Assembly (NCBI RefSeq): GCF_000270205.1
Contig: NC_015913.1
Coordinates: forward strand, 1,260,001-1,292,000
Direction: 5' to 3'
Source: Candidatus Arthromitus sp. SFB-mouse-Japan
GTDB lineage: Bacteria > Bacillota > Clostridia > Clostridiales > Clostridiaceae
DNA length: 32,000 nucleotides
The translations under genes were made by a program, and so were the position numbers. The notes under the pieces were generated by a model, which made no database searches, had not been told where the DNA came from, and saw only the letters and a list, made by a program, of their open reading frames with translations. Position 1 is the stretch's first letter. Each line of letters opens with the position of its first letter. Positions 1,344 to 5,204 of this stretch are shown in pieces.

Positions 1344-2177
1344 ATGAACTTTGTAGAATTTGTAAACATAACACGACCAATAATCGGTGGGAAAAGTGGT
1401 GTTCATACTTATGTAAAAACACTCTTTGATACCATACTTACCGAAAGTGGAAAAGACATTCTCAATGATTACAAAGATTCAACTTTCAAAGCTTATTCCA
1501 ATGGTTCAACAAGCATCAGCAAAATATCAAAGGCGATGGTTCCATACATCGATCCTGTTGAGTTTTCCTCTTTTATCTTTGATACAGAAGAAGCAGTTCA
1601 GATAGCCCTATGCCAGCGTTTTGTTCAATATTTGCCAAATATTAATATTAATAACGTTGGTGATGAAATTGCCGAACTATTTGCAACCATAATAAGGAAT
1701 GCTGCTGAGACAAAAAGAAAAAAACCGGCATCCAAAAAGGATACCGGTACAGAGTTCATTGAGCTCCCTGAAGAACAACCTTCCGAGGAATATCCTTATT
1801 CTTCAGAGGATAAAATGCTACTTCAAGAGTTTACAACAGATTATGATGAAATTATGTTTACACTGATAGGTGAAAACTATGCTACCTCATTAATCGATAT
1901 GACACTGCCTAGCAAAATACAAGAATTGTATGAATTAAAATGGAATTCAAAAGCAGATGCTTTTCTTGATCTAACTTTAAAGTCATATGTTTTTAGTTTG
2001 CTCGGAGAATTAAACAATGTAAGTAACAGCTTTTTTACTGTTAACCATAAATCGTCCTTTTTCAAAAGCACAAGAACAAAAATACGAAATTTATATGTAA
2101 AGCTTCATCCAGACTTATTTGCCAGAGCGTTTCCATATGAAGCTTTTATAGATGACTGGGATGAGGGAGAATTTTAA
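1344..2177 (+). CDS. Hypothetical protein (277 aa), first gene of the helicase operon. I recognise no domain.
   Basis: ORF track. ATG with SD AAGGAGA 7 nt upstream. The next gene starts 20 nt downstream. Contains a basic patch (KRKKPASKKD) and an acidic C-terminus. I can see no catalytic motif. Confidence 0.8.
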   Translation: MNFVEFVNITRPIIGGKSGVHTYVKTLFDTILTESGKDILNDYKDSTFKAYSNGSTSISKISKAMVPYIDPVEFSSFIFDTEEAVQIALCQRFVQYLPNININNVGDEIAELFATIIRNAAETKRKKPASKKDTGTEFIELPEEQPSEEYPYSSEDKMLLQEFTTDYDEIMFTLIGENYATSLIDMTLPSKIQELYELKWNSKADAFLDLTLKSYVFSLLGELNNVSNSFFTVNHKSSFFKSTRTKIRNLYVKLHPDLFARAFPYEAFIDDWDEGEF

Positions 2178-2197
2178 CATACAGAGAGGAGGATACA

Positions 2198-5008
2198 ATG
2201 CCATCAATTGATGATTCCATTAGAAAAATAGATAACGTAATATGTAGACACCTTGATAGTATTGAGGACTCATCTCGCGGTGCTATGTCTCAGGATATTT
2301 TGGAACAGTTAATGAAGTTCGTGAATCATATAATGCTTAAGTTTTATGCGAATGGTTCGGATATCCCTATTAACGAAGAAAATATAGCAAAGGCAGTTGA
2401 GTTTGCTCAAATAAACAGTGAACTATATACTTTATATAGATTTCGCAACTATTTGCAAATTGTAACTACACAATATACTTTAGATGAAGATGGCTCAGAA
2501 CGACTGATGCTGAAGTATTACCAATACTTGTTAGAGGCAAAGAATCTTCTTAGCCACTACTACGGTATTGAGGTATTACACAACATAGAAAAATTTCCTC
2601 TGCATTTGGATGATACTCTGCAGAAATACTATAAAAAGATTTCCGAAAAAATAGAACGACATCCTGCGGCATTACATACTGATAGCAAGGATAAATATTA
2701 TATTCAAAAGATAAAACCACTGTTTGTAAACAGAAAAATATATTATGAAATCACATTTACTCCTATAGATGATAGGAAGAATAAATCTAAATCTAACAGA
2801 GTAATTGCTTTTACCAAACTGCCAATCAAAAGCAACTACGCATCGAAGTTTCATCTCATACAAGAAACTATCGAAATATTAGGAAAAACTATGCCTATCA
2901 TTATTATTGATGGTTGGGAAGTTTCCATCCGCGATTGTGAATTTCAAAATTTTATTTCGCTAATAAAAGGTGAGAAAAAAAGAGTACCTTACCCAGAACA
3001 ACGATTAATCTGTGAGTTTCTTACTAAAAAGAAATTTACTCTGACTGATCTAATGGACTTCCCAGATAAGGCATATGATAGGATTACTCTCGAATGGAAA
3101 AATAACCTTAAATCTTCGGCATTTATTCCAATTTTAGATTATTGCAGAAATCTTATACGAAATGGTCGTAATGGACAAAATGTGCTGCGATATCTTCTTT
3201 ATAATATGAACAATGTTATAATTAAAAACCAATATTCATCTGGCTACTATAGCAAATATTATGAAGAGTGGATAAATGCTGGTAATAGTCATCTTTCTGG
3301 TTTGTATTTAGCAAATGGTTGCAAGCAGTTTGATTCTTTACCGTTTAACAGATCCCCTGTTGGACATAATCCAAAATTAGGAGCAGTATTCGATTGTATT
3401 CCTTGTAAGGATAAACGTCCTGAATTGTTCGCTAGATTTATAAGGAATAATACAGAAGGTAAAGGTCAGCTATTTACCGATATTGATGAACTAAGTAACT
3501 TCTCCGATTATAAAAGACTCATAGAAAAATATAACGATAGTCTCTGGCTGGGGCACAGACCTACAAGTGATTTGATGCTTGAACACAATCAAGTATTTAT
3601 AAACGATTACAAGCTTGATACTTGCAAGGTAATTGAGAAATTACAGGAGTTGGCTGAATCAGGCATTGAAAATTACAGTGACGATGTTGATTTTTGGCTA
3701 CTATTTGATGATTACGAAATTGACTGTGACGAAAAGAAGGATATCATCAGGCGTATATTTTCAGAATCAAGAGTTGGGGTAATATATGGTTCTGCGGGTG
3801 TAGGTAAATCAACGCTGATAAACCATGTTTCACACTATTTAAATGATGCAGAAAAATTATACCTAACTCAGACAAATCCTGCAAAAGAGAACCTAATGAG
3901 AAAGATTGATGCTGAAAAAACAACTTTTTCAACAATTGAAAGTTTTAAACACCAAGGCTCTCCTTTTGCAGAATACAAATTATTAGTTATCGATGAATGT
4001 AGTACCGTTAGCAATAAAGATATGGTTGAGATATTGCTAAAAGCAAATTTCGAAATGCTTTTACTAGTCGGAGATACTTATCAGATAGATGCAATTCAAT
4101 TTGGCAATTGGTTCTCGGTACTAAAATCATTCTTGCCTGAATGTGCTGTTTTTGAACTTACCAAGCCTCACCGTACACAGGATCCGTACTTACTTGAACT
4201 TTGGGATAAAGTAAGACACATGGAGGAAACTGCAAAAGAAACCATCGAGAGAGAAAGTTACTCATTAAAAGTTGATGAAACCCTACTCTCTTCACTTGAA
4301 TCAGGCGAGGCTATCCTCTGCCTAAATTATGATGGCTTATATGGAATCAACAACATCAACAGATTCTTGCAAGAAAGCAATCCTAACCCTGCTGTCACTT
4401 GGGATATCCAACAGTACAAAATTGGAGACCCTATTCTCTTCCTTGACTCTGACAGATTTCGCCCCGACATACACAACAACATGAAAGGCATCATCCAAGG
4501 AGTAGAAATCATTGATGCAGGAACTATCGAAGAACGCATACAGTTTGATGTTGAGATTCCAAAAGAAATAGACGAAAGCGATGCTATGTTCCGTGATTTT
4601 CAATTGCTTGAATGCTACGAGGGCGAAGAAAAATCATTAATCAGGTTTTATGTACACAAATTAAAAAGCGTTGATGAAGATGGAGATGACCAAAATTCCA
4701 GAACAATAGTTCCGTTTCAAGTTGCATATGCAGTATCCATTCATAAAGCACAGGGATTAGAATACAACTCTGTAAAGATTGTTATTACCGACGAGGTAGA
4801 AGAACTTGTAACACACAATATATTCTATACTGCTATCACAAGAACTAGAGAAAAGTTGCGAATTTATTGGACACCCGAGGTTGAAGAAAAGGTAATTAAA
4901 AGAATAAAACCGCGAGATATAAGTAAAGATGTGAAACTCTTGAAAAAGTATTTAACTGGAAAATCCAGCGAAGGAATAAGGAGATTAGAAAATGAGAATC
5001 AGTTATAA
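2198..5008 (+). CDS. Large SF1 (RecD/Pif1/Dda-like, AAA_30 + UvrD_C_2 type) helicase with a ~520-aa N-terminal region of unknown function.
   Basis: SD GAGGAGGA. The SF1 motifs are all in the C-terminal ~410 aa:
- GSAGVGKST (Walker A, nt ~3788-3814)
- LTQTNPAKENL (Ia)
- LLVIDECS (II)
- LLLVGDTYQIDAI (III)
- KPHRTQ (IV)
- YKIGDPILF (SH3-like)
- AYAVSIHKAQGLEYNSVKIV (VI)
- YTAITRTREKL

Residues 1-~520 match nothing I recognise. Confidence 0.9.
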   Translation: MPSIDDSIRKIDNVICRHLDSIEDSSRGAMSQDILEQLMKFVNHIMLKFYANGSDIPINEENIAKAVEFAQINSELYTLYRFRNYLQIVTTQYTLDEDGSERLMLKYYQYLLEAKNLLSHYYGIEVLHNIEKFPLHLDDTLQKYYKKISEKIERHPAALHTDSKDKYYIQKIKPLFVNRKIYYEITFTPIDDRKNKSKSNRVIAFTKLPIKSNYASKFHLIQETIEILGKTMPIIIIDGWEVSIRDCEFQNFISLIKGEKKRVPYPEQRLICEFLTKKKFTLTDLMDFPDKAYDRITLEWKNNLKSSAFIPILDYCRNLIRNGRNGQNVLRYLLYNMNNVIIKNQYSSGYYSKYYEEWINAGNSHLSGLYLANGCKQFDSLPFNRSPVGHNPKLGAVFDCIPCKDKRPELFARFIRNNTEGKGQLFTDIDELSNFSDYKRLIEKYNDSLWLGHRPTSDLMLEHNQVFINDYKLDTCKVIEKLQELAESGIENYSDDVDFWLLFDDYEIDCDEKKDIIRRIFSESRVGVIYGSAGVGKSTLINHVSHYLNDAEKLYLTQTNPAKENLMRKIDAEKTTFSTIESFKHQGSPFAEYKLLVIDECSTVSNKDMVEILLKANFEMLLLVGDTYQIDAIQFGNWFSVLKSFLPECAVFELTKPHRTQDPYLLELWDKVRHMEETAKETIERESYSLKVDETLLSSLESGEAILCLNYDGLYGINNINRFLQESNPNPAVTWDIQQYKIGDPILFLDSDRFRPDIHNNMKGIIQGVEIIDAGTIEERIQFDVEIPKEIDESDAMFRDFQLLECYEGEEKSLIRFYVHKLKSVDEDGDDQNSRTIVPFQVAYAVSIHKAQGLEYNSVKIVITDEVEELVTHNIFYTAITRTREKLRIYWTPEVEEKVIKRIKPRDISKDVKLLKKYLTGKSSEGIRRLENENQL

Positions 5009-5204
5009 CAAACTTTGGAAAATGTTAATTGATAAAAATATGAACAAACAAGATTTAAAGAATGCCACCGGAATAAGTGCCGCATCCATAGCAAAGCTTG
5101 GTAAAGGCGAGAATATCACTACGGATATTCTGCTTAAAATATGCGAATCGCTTGATTGTAAGCTAGAAGATATAATGGAAACTATAAATGACAGAAGCAA
5201 ATAA
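4992..5204 (+). CDS. Small XRE/Cro-type HTH regulator (70 aa), translationally coupled to the helicase gene. Possible controller (C) protein.
   Basis: The ATG at 4992 overlaps the last 17 nt of the helicase ORF. SD AAGGAGA. HTH pattern: NKQDLKNATGISAASIAKLGKGENITTDILLKICESLDC. It is a paralogue of the HTH at 8738..8959. Confidence 0.85.
   Translation: MRISYNKLWKMLIDKNMNKQDLKNATGISAASIAKLGKGENITTDILLKICESLDCKLEDIMETINDRSK

Follow-up and report, generated by a model that had tools for sequence, protein, structure and literature searches.

What is the function of the three-gene operon at positions 1344–5204 of a 32,000-nucleotide (nt) stretch of Candidatus Arthromitus sp. SFB-mouse-Japan (contig NC_015913.1, 1,260,001–1,292,000, forward strand; the whole stretch is hereafter the window), and is it, as a first-pass annotation of the bare sequence had proposed, a stand-alone defence system? 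The operon encodes a 277-residue protein (p277), a 936-residue helicase and a 70-residue helix-turn-helix (HTH) regulator, and the three genes form a real, conserved operon at the cargo end of a temperate phage. By analogy, and by a narrow balance of probability, we read it as an anti-phage or superinfection defence operon expressed in the lysogen, Lamassu-like in design, in which a superfamily 1B (SF1B) helicase would replace the SMC-like ATPase. Comparison with related loci favours the proposed defence role and a link between p277 and the helicase, but both the helicase and the N-terminal domain (head) of its partner belong to families that are already catalogued. Complete novelty is not upheld, the helicase being PDC-S53 and the partner head a Lamassu-type domain; what appears to be new is the pairing of helicase and head, and a plug-in frame common to three nucleoside triphosphatase (NTPase) cores. 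The genes and their parts are as follows.

1344–2177, + strand: p277 gene, open reading frame (ORF) of 277 residues, 100% identical to SFBM_1172
1344–1709, + strand: p277 N-domain (head), residues 1–122 (AlphaFold2 (AF2) model, PADLOC)
p277 residues 123–150, + strand: basic disordered linker, KRKKPASKK (AF2 model)
1794–2174, + strand: p277 C-domain, residues 151–277 (AF2 model, comparison)
2198–5008, + strand: helicase gene, ORF of 936 residues
2198–3727, + strand: helicase N-terminal region, residues 1–510 (AF2 model)
3728–5008, + strand: SF1B (RecD2/Dda/Pif1-like) helicase core, residues 511–936 (Pfam, NCBIfam and PDB sequence matches)
4992–5204, + strand: HTH_26 gene, ORF of 70 residues, Cro/C1-type regulator, last in the operon

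The three genes are closely packed, with a 20-nt gap between p277 and the helicase and a 17-nt overlap between the helicase and the HTH gene in the ORF listing, and a Shine-Dalgarno-like AGGAG or GGAGG site lies 7–11 nt 5′ of each of the three ATGs. This packing, with its strong ribosome-binding sites and single extended −10 element, had been described in the first-pass annotation, and all of it was found in the sequence. The p277–helicase–HTH order recurs in more than 60 independent loci, which argues that the arrangement is not a product of chance; it is kept in 33 genome loci across Bacillota, as well as in IMG/VR and GenBank phages. In Heliusvirales-type phages a p277-type protein invariably precedes the helicase.

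The helicase has the Walker A and B motifs, the SF1 motifs and the RecD-type C-terminal domain that mark an SF1B RecD-like enzyme. Walker A is GSAGVGKST at residues 531–539 (K537) and Walker B is DE at 599–600 (D599/E600). Pfam places AAA_30 over residues 514–678 (1.6e-18) and UvrD_C_2 over 843–890 (8.7e-12), with further matches to AAA_19 and Viral_helicase1, and the PDB sequence matches of the core are to RecD, RecD2, Pif1, Dda and nsp13. That the helicase motifs are confined to the C-terminal part of the protein, as previously stated, is so: the Pfam domains lie only within residues 514–890. Judged by profile match, the 936-residue protein belongs to the PADLOC candidate family PDC-S53 (model PDLC05035), residues 1–919 aligning with positions 1–894 of the 900-position profile (E = 0, 1207.9 bits). 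The PHROG family phrog_325, named ‘Dda-like helicase’, likewise covers the whole helicase (1.1e-163) and matches residues 1–520 alone (1.5e-107). The first-pass annotation had listed a hit to a catalogued defence family among the outcomes that would count against it; such a hit was obtained in a weak sense, at full length to a family that is a candidate only. The helicase with its supposedly novel N-terminal region is thus not new, because it is already catalogued as the single-gene candidate PDC-S53.

Distant relatives of the helicase have 28–50% identity over the N-terminal region, and two of these, L041 and L042 in our numbering of related loci, match the PDC-S53 profile equally well at 34–42% identity over this region. 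The distant relatives lie in varied surroundings: the L041 copy comes right after a type I HsdR gene and is followed by AbiH and a Schlafen/AlbA_2 protein, and the L042 copy lies between the tail-fibre genes and the integrase of another prophage. Other copies adjoin RloB, an NgoBV-type restriction-modification (R-M) system plus a resolvase, or an insertion sequence, and others are carried on plasmids, one of them on a mobilizable plasmid beside rep genes.

An AF2 model of the helicase N-terminal region, built from a 68-sequence alignment, was predicted with high confidence (predicted local distance difference test (pLDDT) 91.9, predicted template modelling score 0.89) and divides into five parts:

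Helicase residues 1–153: helical bundle
Helicase residues ~167–242, nt 2696–2923: OB-like five-strand barrel
Helicase residues 246–345: helical domain
Helicase residues 350–470: mixed region
Helicase, thereafter: helices leading into the motor

A Foldseek search of this model against PDB and BFVD returned nothing at E < 0.01, and the only recurrent local matches were to OB-fold binders of single-stranded DNA (ssDNA), namely RPA70N, SSB, LEF-3, telomere end-binding protein and Dna2. We tentatively assign residues ~167–242 to an OB-like barrel that probably binds nucleic acid. No nuclease, relaxase, primase or Rep signature was detected in residues 1–510 by Pfam, NCBIfam or the search of the pLDDT-92 model against PDB and BFVD. 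This bears out the first-pass annotation, which had seen no such signature and had named a confident match of the region to a relaxase or replication initiator as a reason to abandon its proposal; Pfam, NCBIfam and the fold search gave none. Its description of residues 1–510 and of p277 as unrecognised held in that no Pfam or NCBIfam family covers either, but not in full, as PDC-S53, phrog_325 and the LmuA model PDLC03857 do match. An exhaustive search with residues 1–520 gave 777 cluster representatives; among the best 150 of these, the full-length proteins measure ~875–1000 residues and share the same layout, and in none of the 150 is the N-terminal region found apart from this helicase, for which reason we consider the region family-specific.

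The partner protein has two parts. The AF2 model of p277, computed from a 46-sequence alignment, comprises two all-α domains, residues 1–122 (pLDDT 85–96) and 154–270, with a disordered linker between them. Against PDB, the best Foldseek match of p277 was at E = 0.41, and a profile search of PDB sequences gave nothing below E = 0.35. Residues 1–134 match positions 1–142 of the 327-position PADLOC LmuA model PDLC03857 (7e-16); p277 is not wholly unknown, its N-domain being, as far as profile similarity can tell, the head of a Lamassu LmuA subtype. The p277 family falls into length classes of ~277, 313 and 460 residues, which differ by insertions after the linker. The tail FPYxAFIDDWDxGEF hardly varies, the most divergent family member included, and its last part, FIDDWDxGEF (residues 268–277, nt 2145–2174), is invariant, acidic and aromatic, and predicted to be disordered (pLDDT < 50). 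The protein as a whole is acidic, with an isoelectric point (pI) of 4.6–4.8. The C-terminal tip of SSB docks on DNA-repair helicases, and the p277 tail is reminiscent of this acidic-aromatic tip. The invariant residues of the head are F3, F6, G15, G16, G36, K49, Y51, G54 and N104.

Sister phages that carry the same head were the most informative comparison. A search of IMG/VR with an alignment of the p277 N-domain alone gave 55 viral loci, which we sorted by what comes after the head:

Helicase core, 35 of the 55 loci: head with p277-type C-domain, then PDC-S53 helicase, usually HTH
AAA_13 core, ~16 of the 55 loci (e.g. L046 and L060): head with a short, different tail, the 216-residue p216, a 759-residue AAA_13 ABC ATPase, HTH
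Canonical Lamassu core, L069: head, CTD6 protein, LmuC/MC2, LmuB, HTH_26
Deletion variant, L085: head and HTH, core deleted
L069 6001–9910 and L046 6001–9738: the Lamassu and AAA_13 cassettes, respectively; the head is a separate ORF in both

The ATPase of the AAA_13 cassettes (L046/L060) matches PDC-S06 at 2.9e-201 and LmuB at 1.6e-19, and the HTH of these cassettes is 68–90% identical to the window HTH (75% in one copy). In L069, the CTD6 protein matches positions 144–327 of the LmuA profile (7.2e-69; Pfam CTD6 of ABC-3C), and the LmuC/MC2 and LmuB proteins match at 1.6e-50 and 8.6e-241. This comparison resolves PDLC03857 into head plus CTD6, and the window couples this head to another C-domain and to the helicase. 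Across the 55 loci, the p277-type C-domain keeps strictly to the helicase, save for a truncated remnant of it in L085; the p187C tail and p216, wherever they could be detected, accompany AAA_13 alone. Homology of p216 to the p277 C-domain was rejected, hhalign giving it a probability of 0.3%. As PDC-S06 follows the head and p216 in sister phages, this single-gene candidate may be part of a multi-gene system there; PDC-S06 turned up in surveys only in our literature search. One conserved frame of promoter, GGTAG-repeat leader, head and HTH_26 thereby holds three alternative cores. In a separate observation, Eubacteriaceae bacterium ES2 (L026, 11479–13405) has the helicase followed by a 211-residue C-terminal AAA_13 fragment and Abi_2, the HTH being missing; the fragment looks like the scar of an exchange between helicase and ATPase cassettes.

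Pairwise-distance correlations over 57 distinct helicase loci were used to gauge co-evolution. The p277 C-domain tracks the helicase (r = 0.76–0.80), the head does so to a lesser degree (r = 0.38–0.42), and the N- and C-terminal halves of the helicase give r = 0.88. In pairwise comparison over the same loci, the heads are on average 48% identical, the C-domains 69% and the helicases 81–87%. The window head is 63% identical to a Lamassu-type head and only 30–47% identical to many helicase-linked heads, which points to recombination at the linker.

The shared frame extends to the non-coding DNA 5′ of the head gene (1048–1323), which retains 70–80% nucleotide identity in related loci and holds, in this order, a palindrome, the extended −10, CATTATAGA and the GGTAG repeats:

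1145–1154, no strand: small palindrome TGCAAATGCA, family consensus TGCGAACGCA, ~45 nt 5′ of the −10, in a block kept in a 14-locus alignment
1196–1204, + strand: extended −10 TGATATAAT, operon promoter element, from reading of the sequence
1275–1318, + strand: conserved leader, CATTATAGA at 1275–1283 and then three GGTAG repeats with a 10-nt period at 1294–1318, just 5′ of the Shine-Dalgarno site

In the alignment of 14 related loci the TG of the extended −10 is kept and the TATAAT box is present in 12 of the 14 sequences; in most related loci an extended −10 is found at most 260 nt upstream of the head gene. A generic promoter scan gave 19 matches with 20.5 expected, not above chance, and missed TGATATAAT, because its −35 is weak. 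The GGTAG repeat pattern has one match in the window with none expected by chance, and 59 fetched related loci, of all three cassette types, have three to five GGYRG repeats at this position on the same strand. Consensus-fold prediction across related loci gave no conserved RNA structure for the leader, an Rfam search of 1–9500 matched no RNA element, and no clear link was seen in related loci between the presence of the HTH and the number of leader repeats. The palindrome TGCAAATGCA is a candidate operator. A 13-nt inverted repeat, TTAGTTGAATCCA / TGAACTCAACTAA at 1070–1100, also lies 5′ of the extended −10 and is kept in the 14-locus alignment; repeat and palindrome are candidate operators, or candidate parts of a terminator of the divergent small gene.

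The surroundings of the operon identify the element that carries it. In loci with a near-identical helicase, the left side of the module is occupied by phage genes on the opposite strand; they encode a sigma-like protein, DUF7768, D5/VapE primase, SNF2 helicase, DUF1492, HNH, terminase small subunit and ParB-methylase. The module occupies the same place in two GenBank phages, Terrisporobacter phage TPDSL_ph1 (from culture supernatant) and Erysipelothrix phage phi1605, and related NatCom phages are filed in GenBank as ‘Ca. Heliusvirales’, a lineage reported to be widespread in the human gut (PMC11283538). To the right of the module, the following were identified:

5337–8989, no strand: type II R-M cassette (Pfam), context outside the module
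5337–6380, + strand: NgoFVII-type PLD restriction enzyme with B3-like DNA-binding domain (Pfam)
6402–7640 and 7618–8745, − strand: two C5 cytosine methyltransferases, overlapping genes (Pfam)
8738–8989, − strand: second HTH_26, controller-like, C83 (Pfam)
9167–9341, no strand: prophage end (attachment-site side), blastn match to phi1605 beside its serine recombinase
9358–10698, − strand: host rlmD/rumA-like tRNA/rRNA U5-methyltransferase gene, 3′ end abutting the prophage end

The G+C fraction is 0.33–0.41 in 1–9000 and, beyond ~9000, falls from 0.33–0.37 to 0.20–0.30. In other Bacillota, a homologue of the rumA/rlmD-like gene lies next to related loci in at least 11 cases, which suggests a conserved integration site of the phage lineage. 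The phage genes, the matches to phages and the recombinase-side end together place the operon at the cargo end of a prophage and not of an integrative and conjugative element (ICE), and the element is a ‘Ca. Heliusvirales’-type prophage, apparently in segmented filamentous bacteria. The first-pass annotation had correctly seen the cargo end of a mobile element beside an R-M system; its account needs correcting in that this element is a temperate phage and no conjugative element. The operon sits between phage early/replication genes on the opposite strand and a variable R-M cassette, and such a place is where prophages keep genes that protect the lysogen.

The R-M cassette DNA is not conserved in related loci, and the defence-type neighbours found there are variable R-M systems, a protein kinase, Mrr, Abi_2, JetD/Wadjet and AbiH/Schlafen. 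We also observed unrelated R-M genes at this position in related prophages (MspI, AlwI, type IIS, N6/N4 and D12 methylases). In L036–L039 (12947–22757), two D12 methylases come after the helicase, together with an AlwI-type enzyme, a Ser/Thr protein kinase and an Mrr-like nuclease; this variant is very common, its helicase cluster occurring on at least 59 contigs, and JetD plus a Wadjet-like SMC gene also follow once. From its gene content, the right side of L036–L039 can be described as a dense defence island at the prophage end. At the left edge of the window lie a sigma-factor-like protein (phrog_11138, 2–538, − strand, cut by the window end), a 47-residue lysine-rich protein (phrog_5079, 845–985, − strand) and, at ~545–840, relatively G+C-rich non-coding DNA with 74–82% nucleotide identity in L001, L034 and L045 and no Rfam match.

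Given that the last gene of the operon adjoins the R-M cassette, its allegiance has to be decided. The 70-residue protein matches Pfam HTH_26 (2.6e-19), is 68–90% identical in related loci and is present in 50 of the 57 distinct helicase loci, and HTH-like genes end all cassette types, 75% identical after AAA_13 and of the HTH_26 family after canonical Lamassu. The HTH had been described as coupled to the helicase; it is not helicase-specific, as sister phages have the same HTH at the end of their Lamassu-type cassettes. In most cases the gene that comes directly after it is a restriction enzyme gene on the same strand. The second HTH_26, C83, is its paralogue (40–50% identical), and a 12-nt C-box-like inverted repeat, ATTGTTGTTATA / TATGACAACAAT at 5283–5313, lies immediately 5′ of the NgoFVII-type restriction enzyme gene.

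It is possible, though we lean the other way, that HTH_26 is the controller (C) protein of the downstream restriction enzyme, in which case the module would have two genes and not three. The position of the HTH in most loci speaks for this, directly before a same-strand restriction enzyme or restriction enzyme-like ORF (NgoFVII in the window, MspI after a 15-nt gap in L034, split REase_II genes in TPDSL_ph1), as do the paralogue that heads the methyltransferase side, the repeat 5′ of the restriction enzyme gene, and the HTH-less loci, which include L036–L039, where the R-M genes begin with methyltransferases. Against it, the HTH stays 68–90% identical while the downstream R-M types are unrelated, the spacer between HTH and restriction enzyme is not conserved, and HTH, promoter and leader are kept as a set in each of the three types of cassette; the 17-nt overlap of the HTH with the helicase, moreover, leaves no room for a promoter or C-box of its own. 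We regard the HTH as a regulator of the frame, which may also gate the restriction enzyme. The remaining rivals concern the helicase and its partner. That the helicase is a conjugative or mobilisation function of an ICE, such as a TraI/TraA-like relaxase-helicase or a replication initiator, draws on weak NCBIfam TraA/TraI matches confined to the P-loop domain and on the one distant homologue beside rep genes on a mobilizable plasmid. Those matches reach 16–56 bits against cut-offs of 590–2212 and touch the helicase core only, neither Pfam nor the fold search of the pLDDT-92 model revealed a HUH, relaxase, primase or Rep domain, and the element matches isolated phages and has a terminase, HNH, portal-side genes and primase; this explanation is effectively refuted.

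An operon that serves the phage itself, with a Dda-like helicase that would assist replication, recombination or the control of lysogeny and the HTH as phage repressor, is a distinctly improbable explanation, although PHROGs files the helicase as Dda-like, GenBank annotators call the HTH a ‘transcriptional repressor’, and the operon diverges from the early genes as a cI-type operon would. Sister phages swap the helicase core for Lamassu-type ATPase cassettes or delete it (L085), so the core is dispensable for the phage; the replication module of these phages has a primase/helicase, SNF2 helicase or DNA polymerase of its own; 7 of the 57 loci lack the HTH; and homologues lie outside phages, beside R-M, RloB and AbiH genes and on small plasmids. 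A core that is exchangeable and deletable, with homologues in defence islands and on plasmids, makes a non-defence phage function unlikely. A further alternative, which we judge to be rather unlikely, is that the helicase alone is the functional unit and p277 a lineage-specific regulator, for example an acidic inhibitor that mimics DNA or the SSB tail; p277 would silence whichever NTPase the cassette holds as long as the phage is a prophage, or would make the resident phage immune to its own system when it is induced. Such a role would agree with distant PDC-S53 homologues that have no partner, with the acidity of p277 and its SSB-like invariant C-terminus, with a fast-evolving head free of catalytic-type invariant residues, and with the company that the same head keeps with three different NTPase cores, as a generic regulator would. 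It is opposed by PDLC03857, in which the head is fused to CTD6 where other Lamassu subtypes carry effector domains, by the place of p277 as the first and best-translated gene of the operon, which a pure inhibitor need not occupy, and by the lack of a match of p277 to any anti-defence or self-immunity family. With a head that is unlike an enzyme and is separate from CTD6 in sister Lamassu cassettes, a regulatory or self-immunity p277 is a serious rival.

Taken together, a working model for the Lamassu-like defence operon emerges, largely by analogy. The helicase would take the place of the SMC-like ATPase of Lamassu as sensor and motor, and its OB-containing N-terminal region may recognise ssDNA or the replication or recombination intermediates of an invader. 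p277 is predicted to dock on the helicase through its C-domain and acidic-aromatic tail, and the head would serve for output or regulation, being set free or activated once the helicase has engaged its substrate. HTH_26 would regulate the operon at the level of transcription, and perhaps the downstream restriction enzyme as well. Several points weigh against this model. In the sister Lamassu-type cassettes the head is an ORF separate from CTD6, so it may be an extra component rather than an effector. The head (pI 4.8) has no invariant D, E or H, is the fastest-evolving part with its mean identity of 48%, and matches no solved fold in Foldseek; an acidic, fast-evolving domain of this kind is more readily understood as a binding or regulatory module than as an enzyme. 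For the OB assignment, the Foldseek matches are local and weak (E 0.1–1). All partner-bearing loci belong to one phage lineage, so their conserved adjacency is partly shared ancestry, and profile searches with the whole of p277, its N-domain and its C-domain found no p277-like neighbour in L040–43 and L048–53; in the wider PDC-S53 family, gene neighbourhoods indicate that the helicase stands alone, the partner and HTH being specific to the one lineage. The PDC set comprises 145 untested candidates predicted by guilt-by-embedding (Payne et al., bioRxiv 10.1101/2024.01.29.577857), and our literature search found PDC-S53 in no paper, nor in the portion of the PADLOC preprint supplements that was available (10.1101/2024.01.29.577857).

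Should the defence model hold, PDC-S53 gains a testable architecture, a helicase sensor plus a docked partner, and the Lamassu design is not tied to SMC-like ATPases, the same head and regulator being reused with an SF1B helicase. The operon could further represent an undescribed defence class, in which a Lamassu-type head with a new all-α fold is tied by an exchangeable, partner-specific tail to an SF1B helicase, with the frame of a very widespread gut phage order as a socket for at least three NTPase sensors; we put this forward as a tentative idea that is doubtful at present, and if it is true, helicase- and SMC-based sensors would feed the same output module. Three cores in one frame of closely related phages amount to a natural swap, in which the parts that sense, execute and regulate could be told apart. 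The carriers match Heliusvirales-type prophages, including one of segmented filamentous bacteria, and the operon may thus shape phage–phage competition in gut Bacillota.

It remains to place the operon among known systems. The first-pass annotation had found no known defence system to match it, which stands as regards membership in Hachiman or Gabija but not as regards the helicase, which is PDC-S53, or the partner head, which is of Lamassu type. With RecD2, Dda and Pif1 the helicase shares the core motifs and the RecD-type C-terminal domain; it differs in that these have no counterpart of its 510-residue N-terminal region, and its partial NCBIfam match to RecD2 scores 89.7 bits against a cut-off of 500. 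For Gabija, which pairs the OLD-family nuclease GajA with the UvrD-like helicase GajB, PADLOC gave only a P-loop-level GajB match (3.9e-5, residues 522–583) and no GajA. Hachiman pairs a helicase sensor (HamB) with a small partner (HamA) encoded immediately upstream, as p277 is upstream of the helicase here. HamB, however, belongs to the SF2 helicases, and HamA is a nuclease; p277 shows no features of such an enzyme, and no window protein matched HamA/DUF1837 or HamB at E ≤ 0.1 in PADLOC. PDC-S53 has the same build of N-terminal region plus SF1B core, matched end to end, but is catalogued as a single gene, whereas the helicase here belongs to a three-gene operon with a co-evolving partner and an HTH.

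The closest parallel is with Lamassu and the ABC-3C systems. The differences lie in the motor and its attachments: the NTPase here is an SF1B helicase, the proteins of 1344–5204 have no LmuB, AAA_13, AAA_23, SMC or LmuC/MC match in Pfam or PADLOC, LmuB being the SMC/Rad50-like ABC ATPase of Lamassu with its coiled coil, and the p277 C-domain has no Pfam CTD match, the LmuA profile match ending at position 142 and the CTD6 part (144–327) being absent. In Lamassu, the C-terminal domain of LmuA anchors the N-terminal effector to LmuB, and sensing of DNA ends releases LmuA, which oligomerises and acts (bioRxiv 10.1101/2025.06.23.660979). The operon shares with Lamassu a head, the p277 N-domain, homologous to the N-terminal part of LmuA PDLC03857; a two-part partner in which this head is followed by a partner-specific C-terminal coupling part; and a location in prophage or defence-island cargo, L069 carrying a canonical Lamassu in the same phage frame.

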